Part shown: positions 890 through 39,301 of the stretch, piece after piece | Position numbering within the stretch: the first letter of the stretch is position 1 | How the letters are laid out: the number at the start of each line of letters is the position of its first letter | Made by a program: the position numbers and the translations under genes | Virus record (IMG/VR): IMGVR_UViG_3300032288_004702 | Span: 92,277-156,276 of that record | Source: a virus | Length of the DNA: 64,000 bases | Reading direction: 5' to 3' (one strand) | Notes under the pieces: generated by a model | The model's input: the letters and a program-made list of their open reading frames with translations, nothing else | Database searches by the model: none | What the model was told of the DNA's origin: nothing

Positions 890-1234
890 CTACTGAATTC
901 TCAGATTGCAAGTCTCACAAAATTGCATGTCATTTAATTGGGTAATTTTTTTGTCGCACTCTTTTTTGCCGCACGGCTGCAGGATGTGCTCTCCCCGGAT
1001 GTAGGCCAGCACGGTCTCTTCTACTGTGGGGATAGAGAACTGTGCGGAGCCGGCGTTGGGTATCCCCTTGTCAGCCCGGATGAATTCCCAGACGGCGTAC
1101 AAGATGACGTCATTTACTGCTAAACCCTTTTTGCGGGCATAGTCGATTATCTCGTTTTTCTGTTTGCCCTTCATGCGGACATTCAAGACGACGTACTTAT
1201 CTACAAAGCGCGTCTTTTCTGCGCGCCGGCCCAT
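890..1234 (-). CDS. Hypothetical DNA-binding protein (ribbon-helix-helix-like N-terminus, C-terminal Cys cluster)
   Basis: VVLNVRM..KNEIIDYARKKG pattern; PCGKKEC..FCETC. Confidence 0.5.
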   Translation of the reverse strand: MGRRAEKTRFVDKYVVLNVRMKGKQKNEIIDYARKKGLAVNDVILYAVWEFIRADKGIPNAGSAQFSIPTVEETVLAYIRGEHILQPCGKKECDKKITQLNDMQFCETCNLRIQ

Positions 1235-1398
1235 CAGCTGTCGCGTTCGACTAGGGCTTTGATGTAGTCAGTGAGGGTGAGGTCTACTGCCTCCGCCTGG
1301 GCAATGAGTTTTTCTTTGAACTCTTTACTTACTCGGAGAGTGAGGGTGACTACCGGTTTTGTTGGTTGTGTAACAGGGCGGCCGGGATTGCGCTTCAT
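1234..1398 (-). CDS. Small ribbon-helix-helix (Arc/CopG-like) protein, 54 aa, not in the ORF track
   Basis: Translated by hand: MKRNPGRP..VVTLTLRVSKEFKEKLIAQAEAVDLTLTDYIKALVERDS; TGA overlaps the next ATG. Confidence 0.6.
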   Translation of the reverse strand: MKRNPGRPVTQPTKPVVTLTLRVSKEFKEKLIAQAEAVDLTLTDYIKALVERDS

Positions 1399-1570
1399 GC
1401 CCCGAATTTACTGCAATACGAATAGCCTCATTGCAACAACGATGCAAAACACGCATACTAGCCTAAAGAACAAATCAAAAGGGGAGTACATTATTTTCCA
1501 AATCAAAGTTGTGGAACAAATGAGAGCAAGTATTTTGAGAAACAACATTTGGGCAACTCCAATTGGGTAA

Positions 1571-2065
1571 TTATTTTTGGGCAATCTTTTTTGACGGGGG
1601 GTCTGGTACAGCGTACTTATCTCCCTCGAGCTGGGAGACAATCTTTTCGTACATCGAGCAGAATGCTGCCCTGTCTGCATTGGTGTGGAGGTTATAGGCA
1701 GACTGGCCCATTGCCTGAACGGTTTTAGAGAGTGCCTCTGATACCTCTATGGACGGAGGCATACCAGAGTTGACCTCCTGGGATAGGGTAATCCATTTAC
1801 CCCAAGCAATAAGGGGGTCATCGAATGGGGGTATTTTTGTGGTGTTATCAATTGTGGCTTTTCTGAGCTCACCTGGTCGGGGCATAAAGTCTCGAGTTAC
1901 TGCCATATTGCGGAAAGAGCGCTTGACATCTGCGAGCTCGAGGTCGTGCAGGAGCTCGTACCATGCATTGAGGAGAGCCTGAACCTCTTCGTCCTTTGTG
2001 GGCATCTCTAGGCGGTAGGTGGCATAGGCCTGGTCTACTAGCTCTACCAGCTCTGACTTGTTCAT
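1571..2065 (-). CDS. Replicative helicase loader/inhibitor-like protein (G39P-like N-terminus)
   Basis: AWYELLHDL..VKRSF....DFMPRPGELRK resembles the G39P-type motif. Confidence 0.5.
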   Translation of the reverse strand: MNKSELVELVDQAYATYRLEMPTKDEEVQALLNAWYELLHDLELADVKRSFRNMAVTRDFMPRPGELRKATIDNTTKIPPFDDPLIAWGKWITLSQEVNSGMPPSIEVSEALSKTVQAMGQSAYNLHTNADRAAFCSMYEKIVSQLEGDKYAVPDPPSKKIAQK

Positions 2066-2436
2066 TCGTTTGCCCAGTTAGATTTAGCTGATTTATTGCC
2101 GGCGTCGTACAGCTCCTGGAACTTCTCTACATGAGCTGCATCTCGGAATATGACGGATATGTCATTGTAGGCAGTCTTCTGTTTGTTCTTCCCCATATGG
2201 AAGTCTGACAGTGCACAGCCGGCGATGGCCTCTTTGCAGCCCTCGACGTTGTATACGGCGATTGCCCATCTGAGGTCTCTCTCGCGCTTGATGTCGAGCT
2301 GGGCGCGCTTCTTGCCCATTGTGTGCTTCCAGTATTCGAAGACTTCCAGCACCAGAGGGAAAGCTACTTTCTTTCCAATCTCTACTTTGTTCTTATTGTG
2401 GGCATTTGGCCCACGCCCCTTCTTTTCAGTACTCAT
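2062..2436 (-). CDS. Phage replication-initiator-like protein
   Basis: EVFEYWK..AIAGC..SDFHMG.N....YNDISVIFR; coupled to the helicase-loader-like gene; TTGACG-N18-TAGATT promoter upstream. Confidence 0.4.
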   Translation of the reverse strand: MSTEKKGRGPNAHNKNKVEIGKKVAFPLVLEVFEYWKHTMGKKRAQLDIKRERDLRWAIAVYNVEGCKEAIAGCALSDFHMGKNKQKTAYNDISVIFRDAAHVEKFQELYDAGNKSAKSNWANE

Positions 2437-2888
2437 CTTGTCCAATCTAGTTGAAGTCTTCCGCCACCGTCAAACAAATTCGGGAAAATCTGATTTTGGA
2501 CAGACTTCACCTTAAGTCCCTTTGTCACTTTGGTAGGAGATTTAACTCTCGTTATTTCCGTGAATGGAATCTATTGCCGCTTGGCCAGTAAAGATACTTT
2601 GGAGGGGGGTTCGGGGGGAACCTTTACAAATGTTTTGCAAAAGGGCAACCCGAAAAACACCTCCCCTCGAAGGTGTCGAAAAATTCTGTAGGCGTGACGC
2701 TGGCCGGCGTCTGGAAATTTCCAATTTCGCTCTATCGAGCTAGATGGTCGATGACGATAGCAGGCTCTTCCACCACCGTCAACCACTACCCGGGGATTTT
2801 TTATTTTTCTCCACGGCCGCCGGGCCGGCGCGGAAAAATCTGACAAAACTTGCAAGCACGACTAATTACATCGTGGTAAGTTAGCGGG

Positions 2889-2985
2889 GCTTCTTACGGG
2901 TTCCCCCTTTCGCCCGGAAAGAAGTAGCCCCCGGGTTGAGTTCGTTGATGGGTTGGTAGGTGGCCGTCTTCGACTCCCCGGGGGC
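2889..2985 (+). ncRNA. Candidate two-hairpin small RNA with loops antisense to array-gene leaders
   Basis: Extended -10 TGGTAAGTT at 2874-2882; two long stems whose G-U pairs only work on +; loops TTCCCCCTTTCG and GTTGGTAGGTGG. Confidence 0.6.
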
Positions 2986-2998
2986 ACCTTCGCTTTAT

Positions 2999-3415
2999 CT
3001 ACTCTCCACCCCAGTAGTCTTTGTTCTTTTTCTTGCTGCTGTGCCGCGGGAGGAATTTTGATGATGCTGCTTCCTGCTGCAGCTGCGCCTGCCGCTGAGC
3101 TGCACGTGGGTCTGAGAGTTTGGCAAGAATTTCCTTGGTCTCGCCATCGAGGCCGCCACCGACAGTCTTCGAGTAATTCGACGGGTGCTCCATCCGGTTG
3201 CGTGCTTTTTCTTTTATTTCCTCTTCGAGAAGAAATTGCTGCAGCTCTAGCTCGAGCAGGGTTTGTGCGTTTTTTTCGATATTCCGCGGATTCGTCAGTG
3301 TCCGGTATTTAAATCTATCCAGGTACCTGCCGGCGACGCCGGCCATGGCAGCAATAAAAACGATAATTGTTGCAACTGCTGCCGCGGTGAGAATCATTGA
3401 GATAAATGTGTTCAT
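2999..3415 (-). CDS. Hypothetical protein with N-terminal TM helix
   Basis: ORF with AAGGA RBS and hydrophobic N-terminus; stop lies in the GAGTAGATAA motif. Confidence 0.6.
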   Translation of the reverse strand: MNTFISMILTAAAVATIIVFIAAMAGVAGRYLDRFKYRTLTNPRNIEKNAQTLLELELQQFLLEEEIKEKARNRMEHPSNYSKTVGGGLDGETKEILAKLSDPRAAQRQAQLQQEAASSKFLPRHSSKKKNKDYWGGE

Positions 3416-3688
3416 GATTGTTTTTTCCTTTGTTCAAATTTATTGATTATTTCTTCCAGACGGCCGTCGTTTACTCGAGGGACCAGCCAGAAAAAGAACC
3501 AGAAGACCATGGCCATGTATGAGAAAAATGCAATTTTCATTCGCCGACCTCGTCGAGGTATGAGTCCCTAAGACCATCGCAATAATCCTGATATTGCGCT
3601 TTTATCTCGGCCTCACGTAGAAGATGGTCATCCCGACGGCTTTCCTCAAAAGCCAGGAATTCTGCATTGATGTTTTCAGGGCCCATGG

Positions 3689-3961
3689 TTACCTGCCGGC
3701 GGCCAGAAGTTCTTCGTGTTTTTCCACAGTTTCTAGATACGTGTCGACTACACGTATGAAAGTCGCAGAGAAAACCATCCGTGTAGCCATCGACATATCG
3801 TCGATTTTTTCGAATATTCCCCCCATGACAAGAAGCTTCTGTCTAACCGCATCCAGATTTTCTGCACGCTCTTCAGGAGCATAGGGATTACCAGTTATCT
3901 CGTCATAGAGAATTGCATCTTGCAACTTTTCGGCGAGGAGCTCTGAGTTAAAGTTTTCCAT
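3689..3961 (-). CDS. Hypothetical protein
   Basis: Tightly packed - strand ORF. Confidence 0.55.
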   Translation of the reverse strand: MENFNSELLAEKLQDAILYDEITGNPYAPEERAENLDAVRQKLLVMGGIFEKIDDMSMATRMVFSATFIRVVDTYLETVEKHEELLAAGR

Positions 3962-3989
3962 TTATCTAGTACCTGTCTTTTGAAGTTAT

Positions 3990-4253
3990 CTACTGGCCGC
4001 GCCGGCCGCGAAAACTTTTCCTTTTTTTGATTTTGTAGCCGGCGAGCTCGAGCTCTTCGATTACATGTGCTGGGATTCCCGCCCAAACGACGACACCTTT
4101 ATGTACCAGTGCACGTGCGATTGCTGCCTGCTTTCCTGGGAGTTCATCAATTCGTTGATGGAGCGCTGCCGGCGTGACGGGGTGTCTTGGAATCGGAGAG
4201 CTATTAAAAACTTCCCAGGGGTCAATGTCTTCGCGGTCTTCCACCACCGTCAA
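3990..4253 (-). CDS. Hypothetical protein
   Basis: Packed - strand ORF with RBS. Confidence 0.55.
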   Translation of the reverse strand: MTVVEDREDIDPWEVFNSSPIPRHPVTPAALHQRIDELPGKQAAIARALVHKGVVVWAGIPAHVIEELELAGYKIKKRKSFRGRRGQ

Positions 4254-4262
4254 TCCCTTTCC

Positions 4263-4952
4263 TTAGATGTCTTTGGTTAAATCTAACAGAAACCAGCCAC
4301 GTTCCCACATCATGCCGATAGCCGAGTATCCGATGATGTCGGTGTATGTATCTGTTAGAGATTCATTGGCCGCCTTGCCGCTGCGCGCCAGATGCAGATT
4401 CTTCAATCTTGCGATTTTGTCATGTGTCCGGACAACCAGGCCTCGACGTCCAAAACGTGCAATATTGTGATGTCCGTAATCTGACTGCTTTCGAATCAGG
4501 GTTTCTGTGATGTCTTCCCGAATCATCCAACTATCGAAGACGCCGGCTGCGGATGCTGAATTATTTGAAATTTCTGGATGGCCGCCAGGGCCGCGGGACG
4601 GAAATAAATTCCCGTTTTTCATCCCAACAGCTGCAGCTATAGAACCGAGAATTCTCCATTCTTCAACCCAGTACATCTCGTCCGCCTGAAACCAGTCCAT
4701 GGTCTGGACCATTCCCTCAAAATGGTTATCTACCATCGAGAGTCCCTCGAGTACAGAATTTAAAAAATCGTCGATTTCTGCCGCCGGGCCGCTCGAGCTG
4801 ATAATTCTCTTTTTTCCGTTTTCTTCAAAGTTCCGGAGGTGCACCAGGGGTGCATCCGCTCTATTGAAAATCTCAGAAACGCAGATTGCTGCAGCTTCTT
4901 GCCAGCTCCTTGGGTGCTCTGGTTCGAGCTCTTCCACCACCGTCAACATCAT
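4263..4952 (-). CDS. DUF1599 / nucleotide-modification-associated domain protein
   Basis: C-terminal RKQSDYG...VRTHDKIARLKNL...NESLTDTYTDIIGYS. Confidence 0.7.
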   Translation of the reverse strand: MMLTVVEELEPEHPRSWQEAAAICVSEIFNRADAPLVHLRNFEENGKKRIISSSGPAAEIDDFLNSVLEGLSMVDNHFEGMVQTMDWFQADEMYWVEEWRILGSIAAAVGMKNGNLFPSRGPGGHPEISNNSASAAGVFDSWMIREDITETLIRKQSDYGHHNIARFGRRGLVVRTHDKIARLKNLHLARSGKAANESLTDTYTDIIGYSAIGMMWERGWFLLDLTKDI

Positions 4953-4975
4953 TTATCTACCTTCGGACTTATCTA

Positions 4976-5437
4976 CTACTCCCCCGCCAGCAGGTCATCC
5001 CAGCTAGCAGGAGGGTTCGCCTTCATTTCCACTCTAACCATTTCGGCCAGCTCTTCCAACTGCCCAACCCAGAAAGCGTCGGAAACTCCAGGGAGCCCCG
5101 TCTTTTTTTCCATTGAATCGACGCTGTCGAGGCGCTCTGCAATGAAATCACGGGAAAAGGCAGCGATGATTGATTTGTCCCCAGCTCCACGCATGAGTAC
5201 TGGACCGCTTTGTCCATCCAAGGCCTCGGACGGAACATGTATCCCCGTCACAACATATTTGTTGTCATCTGTGAAAATGAAAATAATGTTGTTGTTCTCT
5301 TCGTCAACCAGGGAAAGCTGGCTAGCCACTTCGGCCGCCACGTCTTTCGAAATATCTGATTTTTCAAGCATCGCAATGAGCTCTTCTTTGTTGAATTTCT
5401 CTGAATTCCCCACTGGGTCCCAGTAGCTGTCTCTCAT
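4976..5437 (-). CDS. Hypothetical protein (start reassigned to ATG at 5437)
   Basis: AAAGGA RBS precedes MRDSYW. Confidence 0.6.
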   Translation of the reverse strand: MRDSYWDPVGNSEKFNKEELIAMLEKSDISKDVAAEVASQLSLVDEENNNIIFIFTDDNKYVVTGIHVPSEALDGQSGPVLMRGAGDKSIIAAFSRDFIAERLDSVDSMEKKTGLPGVSDAFWVGQLEELAEMVRVEMKANPPASWDDLLAGE

Positions 5438-6355: not shown

Positions 6356-6730
6356 ATGGACAACAGCACAAAATTCAATATGTATGTGGAAGCCCTCGAG
6401 CTGTACATTTCAAAAAATGGAAATTCTAAAATTCCAGCATCACATGTTGAAATCGTAAATGAAAAAACAATTTCTCTTGGCGCATGGGCCGGATACATCC
6501 GTCAGAGATTTCGCAAAAATCAACTTCCCGCAGCACGTGTAGCCAGACTTGAACAAATCAACGGCTGGCAGTGGGGGCCATTTCAGCCAGGGCCGGCGAC
6601 GGATTCTGCAAGAAATGAATCAATTCGCGAGCTTCGCATTCAGGGCAAGTCTCTTCGGGAAATCGCAGATGAGTTTGATTTGTCGCGGCAGCGCGTACAT
6701 CAAATCATCAAAAAGATGAAAATTTCGTAG
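6356..6730 (+). CDS. Helicase-associated (HA) domain fused to sigma70 region-4-like HTH
   Basis: YISKNGNSKIP..SLGAW...RQRFRKNQL...RLEQI..WQW (HA); KSLREIADEFDLSRQRVHQI (sigma r4). Confidence 0.75.
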   Translation: MDNSTKFNMYVEALELYISKNGNSKIPASHVEIVNEKTISLGAWAGYIRQRFRKNQLPAARVARLEQINGWQWGPFQPGPATDSARNESIRELRIQGKSLREIADEFDLSRQRVHQIIKKMKIS

Positions 6731-6780
6731 GGCCGTCCGGTCTTCCACCACCGTCATTAAGTTTCCGCGAGGGGGAAAAC

Positions 6781-7092
6781 ATGGTTTCTCAAAATTGGAA
6801 AAATACGAACAAAACTTCTGGGTCGTTTCCTCGGGCTTTCCGAGATTCGCCGATTTCGGGCGGGGCTCCCACCCCAAAGAAGGGTGGTCGTGACAGCCGG
6901 CGAGAGGGGAACGCATTTCTTGGATTTCTGTTGCTCGTCGGGATACACACCGTTCTGCTGTGGCTTGCCGTGCGTGTCGCAGAATCGGCAGGAATCGTGA
7001 CATGGAATGTCGGCTGGTGGGATTCACTGAAACTCGCCACGCTGTATGTCGTGTGGAAGGCTGTCGCTCTCATGGCTTGGAATCGCCACTGA
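6781..7092 (+). CDS. Hypothetical membrane protein
   Basis: RBS GAGGGGG; two hydrophobic segments. Confidence 0.5.
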   Translation: MVSQNWKNTNKTSGSFPRAFRDSPISGGAPTPKKGGRDSRREGNAFLGFLLLVGIHTVLLWLAVRVAESAGIVTWNVGWWDSLKLATLYVVWKAVALMAWNRH

Positions 7093-9331: not shown

Positions 9332-10057
9332 CTACTTCACTCCGTCCACTGCGAGAGCGTCAAGAATCTGCTTGGCACGGTTGCCGAATGTCAGTTGGCA
9401 GGCTCGCTCCATTCCGACCGACTTGCGCAACTTGTCCAGTGCCATGAAAGCACGGAGAGAGATACGAGCCTCGCCACCGTCAGCCATGCGAACGGCATAG
9501 CCACGCAGGTCGGGAGACAAGCGGAGAAGTGCGTTCGGGTGCGGTTCGTTGATTCGGATACGAATGGGGAAACGGTCTGCGAGAGCCGTGGGCAGTTCGC
9601 TCATGTTCTCAATGTTCGTGGTCATCACGGCAGAGAATCCGTCAAGAGGGCGAACAGTCTCGCCAGTCTCGGGGTGCTGGAAGGAAGCCGATTCGGGAGA
9701 ATCCAGCATGGCGAGGAGTGTTGCGAACACATCGCCACCTGCCTTATCTACTTCGTCCACGATGAGGCGACCGCCCTTCGTGCCGTTGCCCTTCCATGCT
9801 TTGAGAGCCGAGCCGTCAAGCCACTGGAAGCCACCGTTCGCTGACGGCATGAAACCGCCCGTGACATCCATGTTGGTCATGTCCTCTGTGCAGACGAGGC
9901 GGTATGCGCCAGCCTCGGTGTCTCCGAACGACAGACCTGCGTAGGTCTTGCCAGTTCCAGCAGGACCGAACAGAATGATTCGGTCAATGCCTGCGTCAAG
10001 TGCGTCCTTGACATCTTGCCAGCACTGCGGAAGTGCTGTCTCTTGGGTGGTGTCCAT
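9332..10057 (-). CDS. MoxR/CbbQ-type AAA+ ATPase
   Basis: Walker A GPAGTGKT, Walker B LIVDEVD, TTN sensor, ALADRF arginine finger. Confidence 0.85.
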   Translation of the reverse strand: MDTTQETALPQCWQDVKDALDAGIDRIILFGPAGTGKTYAGLSFGDTEAGAYRLVCTEDMTNMDVTGGFMPSANGGFQWLDGSALKAWKGNGTKGGRLIVDEVDKAGGDVFATLLAMLDSPESASFQHPETGETVRPLDGFSAVMTTNIENMSELPTALADRFPIRIRINEPHPNALLRLSPDLRGYAVRMADGGEARISLRAFMALDKLRKSVGMERACQLTFGNRAKQILDALAVDGVK

Positions 10058-11444: not shown

Positions 11445-11597
11445 GCTGGAATCTCACTTTCTGTGTTGGTGGTGATGAGAAGTATGCGAATGTCCAAGAG
11501 CAGGTCAGTCATCTCTGCCGATGACACGATGTCCCTGCCCGAACAGTGGGCTATGGCTTTGTCCACTAAGGCGACCAGTTCCTCGTCCATGACTTAT

Positions 11598-12290
11598 CTA
11601 CTCCCCTTTCTTTCGCTTGGGAGCCTTGTCAAGCATTTCCTTGTAGGCAACCGTCTTGGTGGCGAGTTGCATGTAGCCGACCGTTGCCAGCAGTGCGTCA
11701 GGCAACTTTCCGTGCGATTCAGCCTCGGGGTTCACATTCCCGACTGAACACATCGGTTCTTCGTCAAATACGGGAAGTCCGTGGTCGTCATAGCGGTACA
11801 TGCTGGTGATAGACCAAACGCATGTTGCGTTCCAGTCCACGGCGGTCAAGATGATTCCTTCACGGACTGTTGAGAACGGATTCTCCTTGTAGTCCTTCTC
11901 AAAGTCACCCCTGTCGTGGTTCTGTGCTTCCTCGTCAGTCATGTCCTGCTTTGCGTAGCCCTCAACGAGAACCATGATGAAGTCAAACGGACGAATCGGG
12001 AGAGCCTTCACGACATCCTCAAATGCGTCATAGATGTCCTCTTTGTGAATGAGGGGAATCATGGCAAGGTGGTACGGCTTTGAGAGTGAGAACTCCTGCT
12101 GGTAGTCCAAGCATGCGTCATGGTCGGGATTCGTTTCGTTGCTCTCAACGGCAACGAGAAGCAGAGGGGGACTGTCCTGCATGGGCTCGTCCTTGCACAT
12201 TTCCGTCTTGGCAAAGACGGCTCGGTTGAGCAAATCTTCCATGATTTGCTTCATGTCGTGGTCTATGACCTCGTTATCTCGTGGTTTCAT
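11598..12290 (-). CDS. Hypothetical acidic protein
   Basis: Family promoter and GAAAGGGG RBS. Confidence 0.7.
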   Translation of the reverse strand: MKPRDNEVIDHDMKQIMEDLLNRAVFAKTEMCKDEPMQDSPPLLLVAVESNETNPDHDACLDYQQEFSLSKPYHLAMIPLIHKEDIYDAFEDVVKALPIRPFDFIMVLVEGYAKQDMTDEEAQNHDRGDFEKDYKENPFSTVREGIILTAVDWNATCVWSITSMYRYDDHGLPVFDEEPMCSVGNVNPEAESHGKLPDALLATVGYMQLATKTVAYKEMLDKAPKRKKGE

Positions 12291-12410
12291 TGGTTGCCCC
12301 TTTCAGGCGGTGTGGTTGGTACTGGAAGCATACCATGTCAGGTACAGACTTCCCAAAGTTATCTACTGACAGTAGGGGTCGGTACAAGCCCCTACACGCC
12401 AGCATGATTC

Positions 12411-12632
12411 CTACTTCTCTCCGAGCAGGTTGTTTACCGAAACTCCGAGAGCAGTGCTTACGGCGAGCAGTGTTGTCACGCTCGGTGCGAATCTTCCGTT
12501 CTCAATACGATTCACCGTCTTTCGGTCAAGCCCTGCACGGTTGGCAAGTTCCAACTGTGACCAGCCCTTCTCTGACCTGTGAACTCGTACTGATTCTGAG
12601 ATTTGCTCTGTTGATGTTGCTGATGTTCCCAT
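12411..12632 (-). CDS. XRE-family HTH regulator
   Basis: RSEKGWSQLELANRAGLDRKTVNRIENG..PSVTTL..VSTALGV. Confidence 0.9.
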   Translation of the reverse strand: MGTSATSTEQISESVRVHRSEKGWSQLELANRAGLDRKTVNRIENGRFAPSVTTLLAVSTALGVSVNNLLGEK

Positions 12633-13693: not shown

Positions 13694-13999
13694 CTACTCT
13701 GCGATGGATGCGTAGATAAGTGACACGCTGGCGAATGAATGTCCAGCACCACGGCCGTACTTGATGAATCGGAGAATCCCACGGATTCCATCGGGCAGGT
13801 GCGTGAAGGCTTCGTCCGACCAGCCGTAGTCATCAAATGGAGAGTTATCTACTGGTTCAGGGGCAAACGAAACGATACGAATCTGAGGCTCGTACTCCCA
13901 CGCCCAGCGAACATTGCACTCAGCACCGACCAGGAGAAGTTCTTTGTGGAAGAACCGATGACGGAAGTACGAGATGATGAGCGAAATGTAGAGAGCCAT
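13694..13999 (-). CDS. Hypothetical protein
   Basis: Packed operon member. Confidence 0.5.
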   Translation of the reverse strand: MALYISLIISYFRHRFFHKELLLVGAECNVRWAWEYEPQIRIVSFAPEPVDNSPFDDYGWSDEAFTHLPDGIRGILRFIKYGRGAGHSFASVSLIYASIAE

Positions 14000-14006
14000 G
14001 AGTTAT

Positions 14007-15130: not shown

Positions 15131-15448
15131 GCCCTCATCATACCAGCCGTGGTACAGGCTTCCCAAATCAGCCCTTTCAACCACCGTCAATGTGTTGCGA
15201 GTTATCTACTACCCCCCCCAGCGCGTTCCGATTTCCAAAGATTTCCACAACTCGGATTTATCTACTACACCCCCGACTGCGCCTCGCCCCTGTCCGCAGG
15301 GAGCCCCGGCCGTTGCAGGGTCCAGAATCAGGCGGGGCTCCACCCCCAAACGCCCCCACCTGACTGCCTCGGGGTGGGGACTTATCTACTCTGCTAGTTC
15401 TCCCCCCTCGCCCAACCGAAGCGAGAGGAGAGAGACCTAGTAGATAAG

Positions 15449-16215: not shown

Positions 16216-16539
16216 TGCTAACCCCTTTCAGGTTGTGTGTATCGGTGGCGACCACAGAGTACCACCATTAGGACAGGCTTCCCAAACTTATCTACCACTC
16301 CCCCGCGTTGCCCTCGCCTTGCGTGTGGGGTGGAGCCCCGGGGTGGCTGGGCTTCGGGCGGGGCTCCTGCCCCAGCCCTTGCCCCTCGCTCGGACTTATC
16401 TACTCTCCCCGAACACGCCTGTTCCCCCGTGCGCCTTGCGGACACTCGGGGGACAGACGGAGTAGATAAGTGTTGGGGTGGGGGACTTATCTACTCCACT
16501 CGGCTCGGGGGCTTGCGCCCCCTTGCCTTGCGTGTGGGG

Positions 16540-17096: not shown

Positions 17097-17224
17097 TTAT
17101 CTACTACGCCCCCGTGTTGCGCCCACAGCCCCCCTCGGGGGCGGAGCCCCGCTGGTTTGTCGGTCAAGGCCGGGGCTTCTGCCCAGAACTGCCGTCTAGC
17201 CCGAACGGGGGAGTATTAGATAAA
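17097..17224. repeat. Complete inverted-repeat element (TTATCTAC..CCCCCG..GGAGCCCCG..CGGGGCTT..CGGGGG..TAGATAA)
   Basis: Three nested pairs of inverted boxes. Confidence 0.8.
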
Positions 17225-18022: not shown

Positions 18023-18146
18023 TTATCTACTACTCCCCCGCGTTCGGTTTGCCCGTGTTTGGAGTGGAGCCCCGGCTGTTCGCCGATAGTCGCGGGGCTT
18101 CTGCCCCAAAGTCGGGCTGGCGTGGCGTGGGGGGTTGGTAGATAAG
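18023..18146. repeat. Complete inverted-repeat element
   Basis: Same nested architecture, abutting the promoter at 17992-18019. Confidence 0.8.
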
Positions 18147-18186: not shown

Positions 18187-18301
18187 ATTTGGACTTATCT
18201 ACTCTCCCCTGCGCTCGCCTCAATGGAGTAGATAAGTAGATAAATGACGAAGCCCCCAACAGTCGGGGGGTGACTGTCGGGGGCTTGCGCCGTGCTGGGG
18301 G

Positions 18302-18769: not shown

Positions 18770-19116
18770 GTTGTTCCCCTTTCGGAATGGTTGGTAGGAC
18801 ACCGTCAGCGTACCACGCTGGGGACAGGCTTCCCAAACTTATCTACTCGGTTCTTCCACCACCGTCATTCATTTGAGAGAGTGGGCAGAGACAGCCCTTG
18901 GGAAATCCCGACTTATCTACCACGCCCCCGTGTGGTGGCTCGCCCCAGCCCCAGCCCCCGTTCGGGGTCGGAGCCCCGGCGTCTCCAAGCGAAGCGGGGC
19001 TCCTGCCCCAACTTTGGGTCAGACGAACAGGTGTTCGGTCTGTGGGGTCGGGGACTTATCTACTCCCCCAATGGAAAGGGGGGCAGGGGGAGTAGATAAG
19101 ACCCGAACGCCTAGCC

Positions 19117-19946: not shown

Positions 19947-20083
19947 TTATCTACTACCCCCCCGTGTTCTCGGCACAGCCAGCCAGCCCGAGTTGTGGCA
20001 AGAAGCCCCGCTTCGCTACCCGAACCGGCCGGGGCTCCTGCCCTAAACTGCCGTGGGCAGGTGAACGGGGGAGTCGTAGATAA
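19947..20083. repeat. Complete inverted-repeat element
   Basis: TTATCTACTACCCCCCGTG..GAAGCCCCG..CGGGGCTCC..ACGGGGGAGTCGTAGATAA. Confidence 0.8.
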
Positions 20084-20649: not shown

Positions 20650-21048
20650 CTACTCGGATTCGTCTGCCACCAACGGGCGCACCACGCTTGCGCTACCCGT
20701 AGGTGCGTCATGGTGGGACAGCGAGAACTCAACTCGGTCAGCGAACACTTCGTAGCGGAGAATCCATTCGCTATTGACGGTGATTCCACGCACGAACTCG
20801 GCAACCGTGGTGGCACGGAAGATAGCGTCAAAGTCTCCGTTCCAGAGACGGACAGCCTCAACTCGGAACCATTCGGACTGTGCGAGGATTCCCTTCACGC
20901 ACTCGCCAAAGAACTCCAACTCGGAATCCCAACAGTCTCCGAAACAGTCGGAAGTCGGCAGGAACTCACCCGTCGTTTCGTCAAGTACGGAACAGGTACA
21001 GGTATTCGTCAGTTCGCCGTAGGCGATTCGTGTCTCGGTGGTGGTCAT
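20650..21048 (-). CDS. Hypothetical protein
   Basis: Family promoter and leader; SHHDAPTG motif. Confidence 0.65.
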   Translation of the reverse strand: MTTTETRIAYGELTNTCTCSVLDETTGEFLPTSDCFGDCWDSELEFFGECVKGILAQSEWFRVEAVRLWNGDFDAIFRATTVAEFVRGITVNSEWILRYEVFADRVEFSLSHHDAPTGSASVVRPLVADESE

Positions 21049-21122: not shown

Positions 21123-21244
21123 TTATCTACTATCCCCCCGTGTTGCGCCTGCCCCCACTTGGGGTGGGAGCCCCGGCCCTGCCGAGCGCAGCGGGGCTTC
21201 TCCCCCGAAGGCAACGCCTCGGCGCACGGGGGAATGGTAGATAA
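21123..21244. repeat. Complete inverted-repeat element
   Basis: TTATCTACTATCCCCCCGTG..GGAGCCCCG..CGGGGCTTC..CACGGGGGAATGGTAGATAA. Confidence 0.85.
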
Positions 21245-21271
21245 CTCCCATCAAAGTTTCTTTCTCGGCGT

Positions 21272-21508
21272 TTGACATTCGGACACGCAACGCACCTTCT
21301 ACTAAGTGTGAAACGCTACTACTTCCGACATTGTGGTTCTCTCCACCCCGTAGACCGTGACATGGTGTTCGGCAAAGACGGCAAGCCAAAGGACTACCAC
21401 CCACTCGTGGGTTGCCCTGTGTGCCGAAAGATTTGCTGGCTGTCCCATGTGACGGAGATAGGGGAAGACGACACGCCCGACACGGAGACAGACGGCGAGA
21501 CAGAGTAG
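21272..21508 (+). CDS. Small zinc-finger-like protein in inverted orientation (start uncertain)
   Basis: HCG..CPVC; stop lies in the motif. Confidence 0.4.
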   Translation: MTFGHATHLLLSVKRYYFRHCGSLHPVDRDMVFGKDGKPKDYHPLVGCPVCRKICWLSHVTEIGEDDTPDTETDGETE

Positions 21509-22745: not shown

Positions 22746-22876
22746 TTATCTACCACGCCCCCGTTCACCGCCACACCCCGTGTGGGGGTGTGGGGGCGGA
22801 GCCCCGCAGGGTACGGCGCAGCCGGGGCTCCCGCCCCGAACTCGGCGCACCGAGCACACGGGGGATTAGTAGATAA
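22746..22876. repeat. Complete inverted-repeat element
   Basis: Same nested architecture. Confidence 0.85.
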
Positions 22877-23015
22877 CTCTCATCAAACAGCCCTAGCCAA
22901 ACACGCCACAGACACACTCTGCCTAATCGGGAAATAAATGTCCCATTCCGACACTTAGAGCACCTTCTAGTAAATGAGACCTTGTATTAGGCGTGAGACA
23001 GAAAGAGAGAAATAA

Positions 23016-23252
23016 ATGATTCGTGACCGATACGACCAAGAGACCCATGTCGGAGAAGTCTTGTATGACGAGATTCGTGACGGGTTCATTTGCGCCTACT
23101 GCCTAGACGACTTCACCCATTCGCAACTACACGCAACCTACGGTGGCAACATCCTGCCGATTACCGTGCGTCTATCACGCAAGTTTCTCAAAGCATTACG
23201 CAACGAGCCGTGCCTAATCTGCGACCTGCCGTGTTCACGATTCGTGGACTAA
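23016..23252 (+). CDS. Small zinc-finger-like protein in inverted orientation
   Basis: CAYC..CLIC. Confidence 0.5.
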   Translation: MIRDRYDQETHVGEVLYDEIRDGFICAYCLDDFTHSQLHATYGGNILPITVRLSRKFLKALRNEPCLICDLPCSRFVD

Positions 23253-24816: not shown

Positions 24817-24944
24817 TTATCTACTACATCCCCGTGTGGTGTGCTGTCGCGCGGGAGAAAGCCCCGCGTTGCTCGGCGAGATAGCCGGGGCTTCCGCCCA
24901 GAACTGGCGCACGGCCGTGCTGTGAACGGGGGAGTCGTAGATAA
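24817..24944. repeat. Complete inverted-repeat element flanked by two divergent family promoters
   Basis: Promoters at 24785-24814 (-) and 24954-24983 (+). Confidence 0.85.
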
Positions 24945-25025: not shown

Positions 25026-25628
25026 ATGAAGGTATTGGAAGTCAGCGCACGAAAGGGTGGCGTCGGCACAACGACTGTGGCCTGCGCTCTCGCACTCAAA
25101 CTCGCAGAGCACAACCGAGACAAGGTTCTGCTCATTGACACTTCGGAGAACACCGAAGCGTTCTCTGTTCTTGGCGTCGCAAACCCCATTGGGCGAAACT
25201 CCATCTCGTTCGGTGAGCACAACCTGACAGTCGTGAACATTCCACTCGCAGAAGTGAACAACGGCCTGTCTGTCTCGCAATACGAGTTCGTCGTCATTGA
25301 CGCTGGCAAGAGTGAAGTAGATAAGTCATACTTCGGCCTGACTCCGTTCCGTGTGGCCGTCGTGCGTAACTCGTACCTCTCACTTCGGGCCGAGTCCATA
25401 ACACGAGCGAGCAAAGACGCAGTCGTCTCCATTCACGACGACAAGAATGTCCTGACTGTCGGTGACACCGAGAATGTGCTTCGTGGGTCAGCCGTTACCG
25501 TTCTCCCTCTTGACGAGGCCATCTCTCGTGCCATTGACGCAGGCCTGTTCTCGTCTCGTGCGAACCTGTGGAGCAAGACGGCAGACGAGTTCGTTCGTCG
25601 TCACGAACTCTCCACGGCCTCGGTCTAG
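25026..25628 (+). CDS. ParA/MinD/CpaE-like P-loop ATPase
   Basis: Deviant Walker A KGGVGTTT, VLLID, VVIDAG. Confidence 0.75.
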   Translation: MKVLEVSARKGGVGTTTVACALALKLAEHNRDKVLLIDTSENTEAFSVLGVANPIGRNSISFGEHNLTVVNIPLAEVNNGLSVSQYEFVVIDAGKSEVDKSYFGLTPFRVAVVRNSYLSLRAESITRASKDAVVSIHDDKNVLTVGDTENVLRGSAVTVLPLDEAISRAIDAGLFSSRANLWSKTADEFVRRHELSTASV

Positions 25629-26386: not shown

Positions 26387-26650
26387 ATGAAACAGCGCAA
26401 AGTGTTCACACACGAGGAAGTCATCGCACTTCTCTGCTCGCCTAGCCCGAAGGCAGAGGCAGTCCTGCTCTATCTGACGACAGTCAAGCAGGCAACGACA
26501 GGCGAGATAGCGAAGGCTCTCTGCTGGGACAAGAGCAACACGGGTCGCAGGCTGGAAGCACTTGCCGAGGACGGATTCGTAGAGTGCGTAGACGACAGCC
26601 ACCACGAGGGCAACAGGGGTCGCCCTGCCCGACTGTGGAGAGTCCTCTAA
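26387..26650 (+). CDS. Winged-helix DNA-binding protein
   Basis: ATTGEIAKAL..DKSNTGRRLEALAEDGFV..GRPARLW. Confidence 0.8.
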   Translation: MKQRKVFTHEEVIALLCSPSPKAEAVLLYLTTVKQATTGEIAKALCWDKSNTGRRLEALAEDGFVECVDDSHHEGNRGRPARLWRVL

Positions 26651-27759: not shown

Positions 27760-28122
27760 ATGGCAACACAAAAGAAGAAGCCCGCGACCAAGAAGGTCGT
27801 AGCAAAGAAGAAGCCAGCAGCCAAGAAGCCGGCGAAGAAAGCACCGGCAAAGAAGGCCGCCGCCAAGAAGGCCGCCGCCAAGAAGGCTGTCACGAAGAAG
27901 GCTCCCGCCAAGAAGACGCCGGCCAAGAAGGCTGTCGCGAAGAAAGCCACCGCCAAGAAGGCGGCTATCCCCAGCAGAAAGGCAAAGACCATCTCAAGCT
28001 CTGCCACCGCAACTTCCACGTCATCCAGCGCTACACGTGTGAAGATTTCCCCAATCACGAAGACCAGCACCACGTCGTCCGTCCCTGGCGCGAAGGTCAC
28101 TTACAAAGTCATCAAAAAGTGA
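27760..28122 (+). CDS. Histone H1/Hc2-like basic protein
   Basis: Repeated (P/A)AKK units; AAGGAG RBS. Confidence 0.8.
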   Translation: MATQKKKPATKKVVAKKKPAAKKPAKKAPAKKAAAKKAAAKKAVTKKAPAKKTPAKKAVAKKATAKKAAIPSRKAKTISSSATATSTSSSATRVKISPITKTSTTSSVPGAKVTYKVIKK

Positions 28123-35179: not shown

Positions 35180-35418
35180 TGTGAACCCCTTTCGTTCGGC
35201 AACACCAAGACAGTACCACACATCGGACAGACTTCCCAAAGTGGTGGTGCGCTCCGGTGGGAGCCCCGCCCCTGACGCCCTCACTTCGTTCGGTTGTCCT
35301 CGCGCTGAACGAGGAGAGTCGCGCGCAACAGTGAGAGTAGATAACGGCAGAGACACCGTGCCGACACTTATCTACTCTCATAGACGGTGCCGACACGGTG
35401 CGTGCGCCGTGTACCGAA

Positions 35419-36126
35419 TCAGTACGCGTGCGGTGCGTCCACTGTCATCGGAGCGCGACACGCACGGCAGACGGGAGAGTCTGAATCGCTCTCACCGTAA
35501 AGCGGTGTTTCATCGTCTGCGAGTGAGTACCCGTGAACGAGTGACAGTGCCTCGCCGTAGACAACTTCTACCGAGTGTTCTTCATCGTTCGGACAGTGAA
35601 CCGAATAGTTCGCGTTGTCGTACGGGAACGACTCTGCCATGTCCACCGTGATACGGAACGCGCGCGGTGCCGTGTATCCACCGCGAACATCGCAACCCCC
35701 GTGAATCTGTAAGAGTGTGAACACTTCTCCGTCATGCGAGAATGTCACGCCTTGTAGCGTCTGCGCGAGCGAGTCCTCACCGTTGTAGGTGTTCCATGTG
35801 TGCGCGCTGTCGTCCTTCTCGAACGCGAACGACTCCGCGAGAGAGAGCCAGCCGTCATCGGGATTCTCCGAGCAGAACGCGCGGAACTCTGCGTCAAGCG
35901 TTGGCGCGTACTCCAAGCGTTCCGCGAGATAGTGATAGACCGAGAGCGTCACGCCCCAGCGGTCTGCCCATGCGCGCGGTTGCGCGTCCCACTCTGTGAG
36001 CGTGCGTCCAGCGTTGCGTTCCCAGTGTCGCCCATAGGCACCGCCACTGTCCAAGATGTGCCGTCCCGTAGGCTCCGTGAGTAGTTCCGCGAGAACCTCG
36101 CGCGTGCGTGTGGTGAGTGCGTCCAT
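35419..36126 (-). CDS. Conserved phage hypothetical protein
   Basis: HILDSGGAYGRHWERN; NTYNGE; LQIHGGCDVRGGYT. Confidence 0.75.
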   Translation of the reverse strand: MDALTTRTREVLAELLTEPTGRHILDSGGAYGRHWERNAGRTLTEWDAQPRAWADRWGVTLSVYHYLAERLEYAPTLDAEFRAFCSENPDDGWLSLAESFAFEKDDSAHTWNTYNGEDSLAQTLQGVTFSHDGEVFTLLQIHGGCDVRGGYTAPRAFRITVDMAESFPYDNANYSVHCPNDEEHSVEVVYGEALSLVHGYSLADDETPLYGESDSDSPVCRACRAPMTVDAPHAY

Positions 36127-36133
36127 GACTTAT

Positions 36134-36442
36134 CTACTTCCGCTTGTAGGGGTAGGAGGGGTGCTCGCGTCGCCCCTTGTCACGGAGCGACGCTATTTCG
36201 TTGCGCGCCCACAGTGTGGCGAGCGTTCCGCCGATGGCAGAGCCGACCGTCAGCGCGATTCCGAAGAACAGGTCAAACGCGTTGCGCGTGATGTACGCCT
36301 TAGCGATGGCGAACACACCCGTGAGCAGTGCGAATGTGAACATGCCGACGACGAATCGGTAGATGAAGGTCGGATACTTGTCGTCCAACCAGTTGGTGAC
36401 CCGTGCGTCTGCGCGGTCAAGAGTGTTGATGATGCTTGCCAT
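36134..36442 (-). CDS. Membrane protein (2 TM)
   Basis: Family promoter; hydrophobic segments. Confidence 0.65.
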   Translation of the reverse strand: MASIINTLDRADARVTNWLDDKYPTFIYRFVVGMFTFALLTGVFAIAKAYITRNAFDLFFGIALTVGSAIGGTLATLWARNEIASLRDKGRREHPSYPYKRK

Positions 36443-36625
36443 TGGATTCCCTTTCCGTTTGAGGTGGCACCATGAGCGTACCACGAAGGGGACAGACTTC
36501 CGAACTTATCTACCACTCCCCCGACACAGGGAGCACCCCCCCTGCCCTCCCTGCGGGAGCCCCGCTTTGAGTTGAGTGACGACAGTCGAAATAGCGTGTT
36601 TCTGAGCGAGGGGGGGACTTATCTA

Positions 36626-36880
36626 CTACTCGGTGTCACCGCGTAGGTAGTTCGCGCGCATGACCTCAACCGTGGCTTCGCCGGTCTGCTCGAATGTCGT
36701 GATGTCGTAGATAGCACCACAGCGGTAGCAGAGATACGAACGGCCGTCCCACGCACCCGTAAGGCTTGGCTCGACCATCTCTCCTGACGACAGACAGGTG
36801 TAGAAACCGTCAATGTCGGGCTCGTTGCCACACTCGCATACCATCCAGTCTGCGACAGTGCGTTCGATGTTTAGTGTCAT
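36626..36880 (-). CDS. Small zinc-finger protein
   Basis: CECGN..CYRCG. Confidence 0.6.
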   Translation of the reverse strand: MTLNIERTVADWMVCECGNEPDIDGFYTCLSSGEMVEPSLTGAWDGRSYLCYRCGAIYDITTFEQTGEATVEVMRANYLRGDTE

Positions 36881-37344
36881 TGCGTCTCCTTCGATAGTTC
36901 GTCACGAGCATAGGGGTTGTGTGGCTCGTCGTCATGCCACTGTGCGTCAGGCCATGCGGTACGCGTGTGTACCCCGTAGACGTTCTTGCCAAAGATGGCA
37001 GTTCCCTGCCAAGCGTGGCGACAGCACGGCAGTGCGTCGTCTCGTCCTGCTGGGTGGCAGTTCTGACCAATGTCTTGGGCGAGGAGGGGGAAGACATCGA
37101 GGAACTTCACTACACAGTCGTGACACAGAATCCACTCACGGCTGCGCTGGCTTCCTGTCAGGACACCAACGTTGTCATCGAATCCACCGTAGTAGCCGAA
37201 CGTGTCAAAGGGGAGCACCCAACCATGGTCGGGGTAGTGGGTCTGCTGGGTACACAGGAGACTGCTACGACAGGCTGAGCATGTCGCTGTGTTGTACTGC
37301 CTGATGAGTGGCGTGAACTCGGGTTGCTGTTGTGCTTCGCTCAT
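36877..37344 (-). CDS. Cys-rich hypothetical protein, probably leaderless
   Basis: CSAC, GYYGGFDD, LCHDC. Confidence 0.65.
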   Translation of the reverse strand: MSEAQQQPEFTPLIRQYNTATCSACRSSLLCTQQTHYPDHGWVLPFDTFGYYGGFDDNVGVLTGSQRSREWILCHDCVVKFLDVFPLLAQDIGQNCHPAGRDDALPCCRHAWQGTAIFGKNVYGVHTRTAWPDAQWHDDEPHNPYARDELSKETQ

Positions 37345-37457
37345 GACGATGACTGTACCACGAGATGTACAGGCTTCCACGTTCGCGCACTTATCTACTA
37401 CTCACCCGTAGAGCACCCGTGGCACTTGCGTCGTCCCTGCGTGGTGGCGAACGGAGA

Positions 37458-37832
37458 CTAGGAGACGATTCGTCCTGAGGTCATGCGGAGGAGAACGGCA
37501 TAGCAATACCTCCGGCGTCGCGTCGTCTCCAACTCAACCTCGTACCGTCGCCAACCGCTGAGCAGGTCGAGGTCGGCGGGGGAACGGTAGATGCCGAGCT
37601 CCATCTCCGTCTCTATCATGAGGGAGGGGAGGTTCACCTCAACACCCGTGGCACTTCGCGGTGTCACACCTGCGTCACGGCAGGCCTGAAACACTTTGGT
37701 CATGAACAGAGAGACGGCGAGCATCTGCTCCAACTCGTCCTCGTCTGTCATGTGGGTATTCGTCAGGCGTGCTACGCGGATGCTCTGATACACCTTGCGA
37801 TGAGGTATGTAGATGCCTGACACGAATGACAC
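37458..37832 (-). CDS. Hypothetical protein (start uncertain)
   Basis: ORF only. Confidence 0.4.
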   Translation of the reverse strand: MSFVSGIYIPHRKVYQSIRVARLTNTHMTDEDELEQMLAVSLFMTKVFQACRDAGVTPRSATGVEVNLPSLMIETEMELGIYRSPADLDLLSGWRRYEVELETTRRRRYCYAVLLRMTSGRIVS

Positions 37833-39301
37833 AGTACACGCTATGTGCGTGTGTGTCCCTCTATCCCCACTTCACTTCCTTCGTCTGCTTGTCGTTCGGC
37901 TCGACAGCAAGCACTTCGAGCATGCTTCCCTGCGTGAGTAGCGAGCGCACCATTGACAGTGCTTCGTCGATGTTGGCTGGGGCGTCGAGGTCATTGCGCT
38001 TGCGCACTGCCACGGTGATTCGGTATGTCTCCATGCTCAGTACCATACAGCCTTCCACAGGCGTGCGACACTCTGTGCCTGCTGAGGGGTCTGACATGGG
38101 ATGCGTCTGATGACGTGTCGTGTCCCCTCTGAGGTGGGCACGGACAGCCACACTTCCACGTCATCGCCAATGGCATTGACATGGGTGACTGTCCCTTCTG
38201 ATGAGAGGTCGTTGATGGATGAGGTCAGTAGGTCTGATGCGTTCATGGGTATGACACTACACGAGGGGTGGTACATGTCAAGGGGTGTCATGATGATGAG
38301 TGATGTCAAGGGGGTAGGGTTACCCGTATGACACCCGTGGCACCTCGCAAACCTTCACGCTCTACCTCTCCCCTCATGCGCCTATGGGTGGGGTGGGCTA
38401 GGTGGTGCGATGCTCAGTGGGTGAGGTGGGTGCGCTGGGTCGATGGCATCGGGCTCGAACCTGTTGCGCTGACCATTGCCATTGTGTGCCTCGTCATGGG
38501 GGTAATGGTGTTGCTCTCTATCGGGCGTGTGTAGAACTACCCGTGGCACCTGCGCTCATCGCAAGGCTTGACACACTGCGCCTCGCATGGCGCAACGATG
38601 GGGGTGGGTTATCTACTCGGGTCGGTGCGTGATGCGTGCGTGCCGGCGTGCGTGCGTGTCACTCGCTCGTGCCTGCGTGCCATCGCCATGCGCGACACTC
38701 TCGCTTGCTCTGCGCCTTGCGTGCGTCGGGGATAGTGCTTGCCTTCATGCGCACACCATCGGCAAACGAACGACGTTCGTCTGCTGACCACTTCGGTTGT
38801 GCGATGTGCTTGCGCTTACTCATGCGTCAAGTGTACCTGTGATGTCCCTGCGTTCGTGCGTGCTTGCGTGTGCGTCGCACTGCGTGTGCTGACGTGTTGC
38901 GTTCGACTGCGTTGCTCTTGCGTGATGCGTTCGCATGTCGCACTGCGTTGCCTGCTTGCTGTGGGCGTGTCGCATCGCGTTGCCTTCGCACACGCCTGCG
39001 CTCACCCAAGCCCGAGCCCGAGGTGTACGCACCTGCTCTCGCCTTGCGTGATGCCGACTTATCTACTACTGCCCCACTCGCTCGCGTCGCCTGCTGAGGC
39101 GTGCGCTCACCACTGCGTTGCGCGCTCGGATGAGGGTGCGCATGACGTCGCTGAGAGGGGGTGGTCAGGAGCCCCGCGCGCCTTGACCGCGTGTCCCCAC
39201 AGCAGGGGGGAGCCAAATTTGAAATTTTTGAGTTCAACTTTTTTTATATAAATTTATCCAGCCCCCTTGTGTTTGCCCCCTGTGGGGTGTAGTCTGCCGT
39301 C

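Follow-up and report, generated by a model that had tools for sequence, protein, structure and literature searches.

The stretch analysed here, referred to below as the window, comprises the last 64 kb of the 156,276-bp IMG/VR virus record IMGVR_UViG_3300032288_004702, and the subject of this study is an eight-base motif, GTAGATAA, that saturates one 38-kb block of genes within it. The record belongs to the direct-terminal-repeats class of IMG/VR, is rated complete by CheckV and contains an exact 123-bp terminal repeat. Two WhiB-family genes point to an actinobacterial host. The best cultured matches of the capsid protein are from Brevibacterium and Gordonia phages (47-48% identity), the nearest being Brevibacterium phage Cantare (48.5%); no near-identical cultured relative was found by DNA comparison with the phage collection. 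Proteins of the block are only ~31-34% identical to their actinophage counterparts, and its vWA protein had no match in the phage collection. The most frequent 8-mers in the 50-kb non-structural part of Cantare are words of the GAAGA/GACGA type, without one dominant motif. Genes were taken from a crude caller; the genes, the directions of transcription and the promoters given below are sequence predictions.

The window contains 115 copies of GTAGATAA, counting both strands, versus 0.88 expected and a maximum of 4 in 100 dinucleotide shuffles. All of them lie between 1197 and 39066, the last one at 39059-39066. An earlier sequence-only reading of the window had estimated about 110 copies in one 38-kb zone, about one by chance and none past 39.1 kb, and the exact count agrees with it. 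The genome-wide count, which that reading had suggested as a check, yields 119 copies in 156,276 bp. Two of the additional ones are situated just left of the window (window positions −595 and −157) and belong to the same block, which in genome coordinates begins ~600 nt left of the window; only two are far outside it (genome positions 33704 and 34365), which is the chance level. The density of the motif in the block is 3.0 per kb. The GC content of the block is ~0.52-0.61 versus ~0.47 elsewhere in this phage. A literature search for the motif string returned primer hits only. The block and representative arrangements of the motif in it are the following:

1197-39066: motif-saturated zone with 115 exact copies of GTAGATAA, raised GC content and many small genes with their own promoters
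9744-9751, minus strand: in-frame coding copy, read as V-D-K after the Walker B DE of an AAA_5 ATPase
11594-11601, minus strand: junction copy, whose TAG is the stop codon of the gene 11598-12290, with the next ATG 3 nt past the motif
12359-12366, minus strand: promoter-adjacent copy; the orthologous sites in relative G006 read GTAGGTAA
16245-16300, minus strand: stereotyped promoter with adjacent motif, GGGGGAGTG-GTAGATAA-GTTTG-GGAAGCCTGTCC-N8-TGGTACTCT
16462-16494: inverted pair of copies just 3' of a stop codon, predicted to form a 14-bp hairpin (−19.5 kcal/mol, z −7.4)
18228-18243, plus strand: two abutting direct copies (GTAGATAAGTAGATAA)
24817-24944: divergence point, with back-to-back promoter cassettes and an outward-pointing copy in each; the motif and the gene direction flip together

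Orientation, gene boundaries and anatomy of the site

The strand of the motif mostly follows the direction of transcription. It flips near 24.9 kb, as the sequence-only reading had stated, between the minus-strand copy at 24817 and the plus-strand copy at 24937, and the copies return to the minus strand after ~35.3 kb; small reversed genes bear locally reversed copies. Relative to the nearest called gene, 85 copies are in the sense and 30 in the antisense orientation, and 18 of the latter have an inverted partner at most 70 nt away. Antisense copies are rare inside genes though the antisense strand of the motif is free of stop codons in all frames; hence selection applies to orientation as such. 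Every sense copy inside a gene is in frame 0; this is forced, as each of the two remaining frames contains TAG or TAA.

The copies avoid coding sequence and concentrate at its ends. Only 24 of the 115 are inside called coding sequences, which occupy 78% of the block, so that 79% of the copies fall into the non-coding 22%. At most 6 nt from a gene boundary are 20% of the copies and 5% of random positions, a four-fold enrichment. The TAG of the motif serves as the stop codon of 15 called genes. Fourteen of the 15 such stop codons listed by the sequence-only reading hold; the stop codon at 36626 is a TAG just before the motif, and the one at 13694 had been missed. Eight copies end 0-3 nt ahead of a start codon. 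The layout of the junction copy at 11594 recurs at 14003, 22065 (without stop overlap), 27208 and 36130.

Copies that are read into proteins as VDK or VDN had been listed at eight places, and all of them were found (9744, 8557, 9271, 19729, 25317, 31071, 34248, 34623). A comparison of codon usage inside and outside the zone, proposed in the same reading, proved decisive: 17 of the 18 VD[KN] tripeptides in the block are written as GTAGATAA, with 0.58 expected from codon usage, versus none of the 14 outside. Selection on the block motif acts at the nucleotide level. At 9744 some relatives retain the motif as DNA, and others encode VDK with different codons. In the Arc-like gene (890-1234), the copy at 1197-1204 occupies codons 11-13, at the start of the predicted ribbon-helix-helix (RHH) region. 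Relative G006, whose own motif is GTAGGTAA, likewise has GTAGATAA here, so that the protein sequence is the probable constraint on this copy.

Alignment of the copies gives the asymmetric consensus RGA-GTAGATAA-STC of ~13 bp, with information spread over ~11-14 bp. The longer form of the site is GAGTAGATAAGTC in this phage and GGTGTAGGTAAGTC in G006; as RNA it reads GUAGAUAAGU. The eight-base core is either present exactly or absent: its one-mismatch variants, of which 24 are possible, total only 16 occurrences in the 38-kb block, where their density is the same as outside, and none of them has the consensus flanks. About 34 copies have T at position −2 and form a second element, GGGGGAGTR-GTAGATAA. 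We rejected the motif as a −10 or −35 element itself, as no internal hexamer fits TAnnnT or TTGACA and the distance to the upstream TTGACG element is variable.

The sequence exactness and the strand asymmetry could be attributed to a strand-specific DNA enzyme, either a nicking endonuclease, as in the nicked genomes of T5-like and phiKMV-like phages, or a modification enzyme, whose lesion would be kept off the template strand. An HNH endonuclease gene and nucleotide-modification genes are indeed present in the genome. However, such an enzyme leaves unexplained the restriction of the motif to the block, its enrichment at gene boundaries and its fixed register to the promoters described below, and equal exactness is seen in the stoperators of phage L5. 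Stoperators of cluster A phages are asymmetric 13-mers oriented along transcription, inactive when inverted and differing between immunity groups (PMC9283540, PMC6550527, PMC5559632). When the stoperator consensus was scored on the L5 genome as a control, we observed 18 perfect 13-mers, 7 with one and 5 with two deviations; hence exactness of the core is normal for this class of sites. We consider a DNA enzyme very improbable.

Related phages and the concerted change of the motif

Relatives were collected as uncultured IMG/VR contigs using two motif-containing 14-mers and a search with the vWA protein of the block. The 14-mer scan identified several motif-dense contigs, collinear with the block at 66-86% DNA identity. 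The 8-mer is kept at 66 of 96 orthologous comparisons, versus 15% for background 8-mers; the sites are under purifying selection. All 47 copies in a 92-kb relative contig lie within its first 20 kb. The vWA search retrieved 80 loci with 31-87% protein identity, and the dominant 8-mer of these loci depends on the lineage: the closest group has GTAGGTAA, two others have GTAGATAA and another two ATAGATAA, whereas loci below ~55% identity have no single dominant motif of this kind. Three complete relatives (151-159 kb) contain 79-100 copies each of their own variant, confined to one GC-raised zone of ~40-50 kb per genome and showing the same strand switching. The putative early block exceeds the remainder of the genome in GC content in each of the four complete genomes, with values of ~0.53-0.58 versus 0.45-0.50 in this phage and a smaller difference in the relatives (G006, G007, G008).

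The median protein identity to this phage equals 80-82% for GTAGGTAA genomes, 73% for one GTAGATAA group, and 63% for both another GTAGATAA genome and an ATAGATAA genome. Judging by this ranking, GTAGATAA is probably ancestral, and a single lineage probably switched. The switch is concerted: at 47 orthologous positions GAGTAGATAAGT of this phage corresponds to GGTGTAGGTAAGT in G006, at ~80% median protein identity. Lineages differ in the 5' half of the site and at core position 5 but share the 3' half, TAA[GC]T. Beside its 80 copies of GTAGGTAA, G006 retains 15 copies of GTAGATAA; six of these are at orthologous positions, several of them lacking the consensus flank or being located in coding sequence.

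Homogeneity within a genome (~80-120 sites), positional orthology and a concerted two-base change together argue for a trans-acting reader whose specificity has changed. Other causes of the concerted change were considered and dismissed. Fresh insertion of repeats conflicts with the homogeneity, the positional orthology and the two-base switch; pairwise compensation in hairpins does not fit; and gene conversion between 13-bp repeats is mechanistically implausible.

The lineage variants also bear on the explanation that the copies are sites of a host protein, DnaA-box-like or Chi-like. The reverse complement of the motif, TTATCTAC, is one base off the DnaA box TTATCCAC, which likewise is asymmetric, a 9-mer bound by a monomer, and DnaA of Escherichia coli terminates transcription in a manner dependent on the DnaA box and its orientation. 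In addition, the distant relative G011 has 13 of its 16 copies of GTGGATAA, the eight-base core of the DnaA box complement, in a 5-kb cluster. Yet close relatives use different variants, unlike what a conserved host protein would require; DnaA boxes are not enriched in the window (12 versus 10.5 expected); the phage has no gene with DnaA domain IV or other DnaA-like gene; and the G011 cluster is local rather than zone-wide. Identity with the DnaA box was rejected on these grounds. A polarity of the Chi or KOPS type was rejected as well, as the orientation tracks single reversed genes and flips twice, reverting at 35 kb. Taken together, sites of a host protein are extremely unlikely.

Local clusters of GTGGATAA, often as close inverted pairs, are seen both in G011 (L300 contig, 149.9-155.0 kb) and in another distant relative, G012. 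In the L300 locus the repeated sequence is the longer CCTGTGGATAAGT, within which the DnaA box TTATCCACA is present as its complement. These clusters may represent an origin or a DnaA-regulated region.

Promoters, hairpins and gene cassettes

About 24 near-identical promoters were found in window positions 10121-38056. They have the form GGAAGYCTGTCC-N8-TGGTAYnnT (e.g. 16245-16282, 18017, 24957, 26325), and most of them are followed by a conserved leader (CCAACCGAAAGGGG) and then by a start codon. Their −35 hexamers are non-canonical, and the spacer element is conserved. The end of the motif is situated 4-5 nt upstream of GGAAG in 11 units and 11-12 nt upstream in 6; of the remaining units, 4 have it 16-41 nt upstream and 3 have no copy. 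Reckoned from the extended −10 element, the core of a promoter-adjacent motif covers approximately −46 to −39. Apart from the copy at 12359, promoter-adjacent copies include those at 18023, 18839, 20622, 22627, 23906, 24817, 26312, 26801 and 36506. The distance from the motif to the extended −10 element is fixed within each lineage, being 23 nt in G000, G003, G006 and G009, 26-28 nt in G007 and G008, and 22 nt in G010. The spacer element of the promoter also differs between lineages, reading GTAAGTCTGAACC in G007 and GTAGKTCYGTACC in G008. An additional element, TTGACGGTGGTGGAAG, is located 10-30 nt upstream of some promoter-adjacent copies (18860-18880, 15185-15200, many sites of G003); its part CCACCGTC is the commonest 8-mer in many motif-less relatives.

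This geometry could mean that the motif is an activator or promoter-specificity element, where a phage activator at about −42 recruits RNA polymerase and the other copies are terminator stems or decoys. The interval of −46 to −39 is the position of class II activators; the poor −35 hexamers beside a conserved spacer element are in line with activation, and WhiB-like and sigma region 4-like proteins are conserved in the family. On the other hand, only ~17-21 of the 115 copies are at most 45 nt upstream of a promoter, and the other 80% do not fit. Activation leaves unexplained why the junction, in-frame coding and stop-codon copies are conserved at orthologous positions; moreover, the spacing varies by 4 nt between lineages and falls into two classes in this phage (4-5 and 11-12 nt). 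We consider an activator or promoter-specificity element unlikely.

Each promoter is a part of a larger unit. The order of elements in a typical cassette is the stop codon of the preceding gene, an inverted motif pair, a GC-rich hairpin (AGCCCCG...CGGGGCT), a G-run with the motif, the promoter, the leader and the ATG, so that the promoter-adjacent copy sits downstream of the hairpins of the previous gene. Inverted pairs similar to that at 16462-16494 occur at 19056/19092, 23262/23295, 26664/26696, 27554/27573 and 34933/34966 and form strong predicted hairpins, with z-scores down to −9. Among 38 pairs from six genomes, the hairpin is steadier on the transcribed strand in 26 and on the other strand in 12 (p = 0.008). 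Judging by these folding predictions, the inverted pairs probably also act as RNA hairpins at gene ends. The GC-rich hairpin between cassettes, AGCCCCG-(17-22 nt loop)-CGGGGCT, is seen at 16300-16380, 17130-17200, 18050-18110, 18930-18990, 20000-20070, 21150-21220 and 22770-22850; sometimes it lies between inverted units of the G-run and the motif, resulting in a palindrome of ~110-140 bp.

An array of self-contained cassettes, each with a stereotyped promoter, leader and hairpin, resembles a product of cassette mobility, with the 8-mer being a crossover core or a part of a mobile promoter-terminator module comparable to PeSLs or to integron attC sites. Many cassette genes occur in only some relatives, and an exact asymmetric 8-bp core resembles a crossover region. 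PeSLs of T4-type phages are composite promoter/terminator units with a proposed role in shuffling (PMC2839356, PMC4122927), and they share with this block the setting of small early-gene arrays, each gene having a stereotyped early promoter and a stem-loop. The block 8-mer differs from them in that it also occurs alone, inside genes and at coupled junctions, and changes concertedly between lineages. Copies inside conserved genes and between translationally coupled genes do not agree with recombination, nor does the positional orthology of sites with a switching sequence, which is unlike fresh insertion of modules; the complete genome has neither a tyrosine integrase nor a serine recombinase. 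We regard a recombination site as quite improbable.

The hairpins and the sense bias raise the question of the level at which the motif is recognised. It could be an RNA-level signal, in which case early mRNAs would be shut off or processed by an RNA-binding protein or endoribonuclease of the phage that targets GUAGAUAAGU in them. T4 provides precedents in principle: RegB cuts Shine-Dalgarno regions of early genes, and RegA binds translation-initiation regions. The bias of 85 sense versus 30 antisense copies exists despite the two stop codons that penalise intragenic sense copies; copies stand 0-3 nt before the ATG at 8 genes and over 15 stop codons; hairpin stems exceed the motif, sometimes include G.U pairs and favour the transcribed strand; and no DNA-binding protein co-varies with the motif. 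Against this, the placement that is conserved best puts the motif upstream of the next promoter, at a fixed distance from its −35 region and beyond the hairpins of the prior gene. All lineages keep this register while the motif itself changes, which there is no reason to expect of an RNA signal. Hairpin stems tie up about a quarter of the copies, and the conserved Shine-Dalgarno region that the promoter leaders possess is free of the motif. An RNA signal is a serious rival, though a fairly improbable one, and the retained promoter register downstream of the hairpins of the preceding gene favours recognition of DNA.

Candidate readers and comparison with stoperators

The WhiB, Arc-like, HA-sigma4, XRE, ParA-like, winged helix-turn-helix and histone H1-like proteins are those of the block that are recognisable as DNA-binding. 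Genes at the left edge of the window and in the block that encode possible readers of the site, together with their neighbours, are the following:

196-546, plus strand: WhiB-like protein at the left edge, highly conserved
890-1234, minus strand: Arc-like RHH protein at the left edge, highly conserved
6356-7092, plus strand: oppositely oriented gene pair, an HA + sigma-70 region 4 protein (HA-sigma4; 124 amino acids, 6356-6730) and then a fast-evolving protein of 103 amino acids (6781-7092)
11598-12290, minus strand: protein of 230 amino acids, encoded downstream of the XRE gene on the same strand
12411-12632, minus strand: XRE-type helix-turn-helix protein of 73 amino acids, with a recognition helix identical across motif variants
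25026-25628: ParA-like ATPase, an orphan, encoded immediately to the right of the divergence point
26387-26650: winged helix-turn-helix protein of the block
27760-28122: histone H1-like low-complexity protein of the block

The phylogenetic profile of several of these proteins follows that of the motif, which shows association only; the motif-less loci are also more distant. Full-length relatives with the motif encode the XRE protein in 7 of 7 cases, compared with 1 of 15 without it. The respective figures for the 230-amino-acid protein, which is confined to this phage family, are 7 of 7 and 0 of 15. The protein of 103 amino acids occurs only in motif-bearing lineages (7 of 7 motif-bearing and 0 of 15 motif-less loci), and a protein of 79 amino acids encoded left of the window is present in all seven motif-bearing loci and in none of the 15 others. 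The 230-amino-acid protein has no Pfam domain and matched nothing in a PDB profile search. Its structure model is confident (pLDDT 88), with no significant Foldseek match; a wider alignment gave only middling pilin-like matches (Z up to 7.8), which are uninformative.

The sequence-only reading had named the XRE, HA-sigma4, WhiB, RHH and winged helix-turn-helix proteins as candidate binders, and none of them co-varies with the motif. For the winged helix-turn-helix protein at 26387, a search of the three complete relatives, including one with the same motif, gave no orthologue. Counterparts of the ParA-like ATPase in relatives are 37-49% identical; none was found in G008, and no ParB was recognised. 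Two groups of outliers were considered as readers and discarded: small Cys-rich proteins (23016-23252, 20650-21048) were the top outliers but are missing from other motif-bearing genomes, and a DUF6321 outlier adjoins the capsid gene.

Two small Cys-rich genes of zinc-ribbon-like appearance, 21237-21508 and 22869-23252 on the plus strand, run against the surrounding array and have promoter-like sequence upstream that is unlike the array promoters (a TTGACA box upstream of 21308). A Cys-rich protein of 78 amino acids is unusually diverged in the GTAGGTAA lineage, and other motif-bearing genomes lack it. A replication-initiation O-like protein (2062-2436) is encoded at the left end of the block, and the adjacent gene for a protein of 164 amino acids (1571-2065) gave only a sub-threshold Pfam match to a G39P-like helicase loader. 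No sigma-70 region 2 protein and no DnaA domain IV protein were found in the genome. An Rfam scan detected tRNAs only; they include an array of ten on the minus strand at 45512-49055 and a further one at 633-704. Positions 52873-62058 constitute a single open reading frame of 3061 amino acids that has almost no matches in the phage collection.

The best explanation of these observations, to which we give about an even chance of being correct, is stoperator-like shut-off or insulation of the whole block by a phage-encoded DNA-binding regulator. The motif GTAGATAA would be the invariant core of an asymmetric cis-regulatory DNA site, RGA-GTAGATAA-STC, read by a lineage-specific factor, presumably a protein, and ~100 such sites would mark the early-gene block in a family of ~150-kb actinobacterial phages. 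Bound immediately upstream of the −35 region at many host-type promoters, the factor would control initiation, probably by repression rather than activation. During elongation, RNA polymerase would meet polar roadblocks in the co-oriented sites at gene junctions and stop codons, in those ahead of start codons and in those that occupy frame 0 of some genes. Through the promoter and junction sites jointly, all the self-contained cassettes of the block would be switched off or insulated. The sequence-only reading had inferred a phage or host protein coating the region so as to silence, organise, translocate or protect it; the fine-scale agreement of the motif with local gene direction, and its fixed distance to promoters, point to control of transcription rather than to translocation or protection of the DNA. 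The combination of promoter-adjacent sites with co-oriented junction sites matches the operator/stoperator logic of cluster A phages.

Several observations weigh against this explanation. No reader was found by scans of presence and absence, of identity outliers, of column partition over all proteins, of G006-specific open reading frames or of profiles. Among the four recognisable DNA-binding proteins that the family shares, the recognition helices of the XRE and HA-sigma4 proteins are identical in all motif types, and the WhiB and Arc-like RHH proteins have no residue columns separating GTAGATAA from GTAGGTAA genomes. A homologue of L5 gp71 was not found in a six-frame search of the complete genome at E <= 10, at the sequence level only. 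The complete genome has no tyrosine integrase (PF00589 was absent, while all control genomes matched) and no serine recombinase, so that the system is probably not one of lysogenic immunity. Sense bias, copies preceding the ATG and strand-biased hairpins would be equally compatible with recognition at the RNA level. Activators, too, classically bind at a site centred near −42. Finally, the second element lacks the lineage motif in relatives, being GCAGGTAA-like in G006 and of the GAGAGATAAC type in the G003 group; hence the number of primary sites in this phage is nearer to 80, as in the relatives, and one common role need not be assumed for all 115 copies.

A further possibility is that the ~100 sites constitute an "address code" for one entire compartment of the genome, whose reader would be of a type new to phages. 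It could be a new DNA-binding fold from among the many family-private proteins of the block or, given that no recognisable DNA-binding protein co-varies with the motif, a reader guided by a nucleic acid. This idea is tentative, and we assign it a small though appreciable probability.

The shut-off or insulation reading relies on the likeness to cluster A stoperators, which the sequence-only reading had offered as an analogue. The likeness stood in asymmetry, length of ~13 bp, near-invariance, orientation, placement at junctions and promoters and existence of lineage variants; it did not extend to a gp71 homologue or an integrase. In both systems, many near-perfect copies of the site keep one orientation to transcription, and they are found in short gaps between genes, overlapping start and stop codons, and at early promoters. 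Cluster A stoperators combine invariant positions with specificity-linked ones (PMC5559632, PMC6550527), just as one half of the present site is constant among lineages and the other varies. In the L5 control the strand switches between the two arms of the genome. The block motif is five times denser than L5 stoperators (3.0 versus 0.6 per kb). It is confined to about a quarter of the 156-kb genome, whereas cluster A sites are genome-wide, and it accompanies ~24 promoters instead of one early promoter. Unlike cluster A phages, this phage has no gp71 homologue, integrase or conserved partition system, and its lifestyle is probably lytic. As the defining repressor and the temperate lifestyle are absent, membership in cluster A is not supported; the stoperator analogy is apt for the appearance of the sites and probably for the way they work.

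A second parallel is provided by the R4/phiJoe-type repressor of Streptomyces phages, which, as in the system proposed here, is an actinophage repressor reported to act at a promoter and at multiple intergenic sites (PMC10276819). The phiScoe phages of that study differ in being temperate, with serine integrases and eight or more intergenic sites (PMC10276819).

If the shut-off or insulation reading is true, stoperator-type regulation extends beyond small temperate actinophages to large, apparently lytic, uncultured phages, where it would be compartment-wide, five-fold denser and without a known repressor. A two-base change at dozens of orthologous sites between phages with ~80% protein identity would then be an unusually clean case of co-evolution of a regulator and its set of sites. 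Under the address-code variant, a large lytic phage would switch off or insulate ~30 early cassettes at once, and the specificity would have been re-tuned across all sites within a short evolutionary distance. In practice, the motif can mark the putative early compartment of phage genomes from metagenomes, and it offers a defined bait with which to find its reader. The near-identical promoters with an adjacent switch site may also become useful as gene-control parts for actinobacteria.

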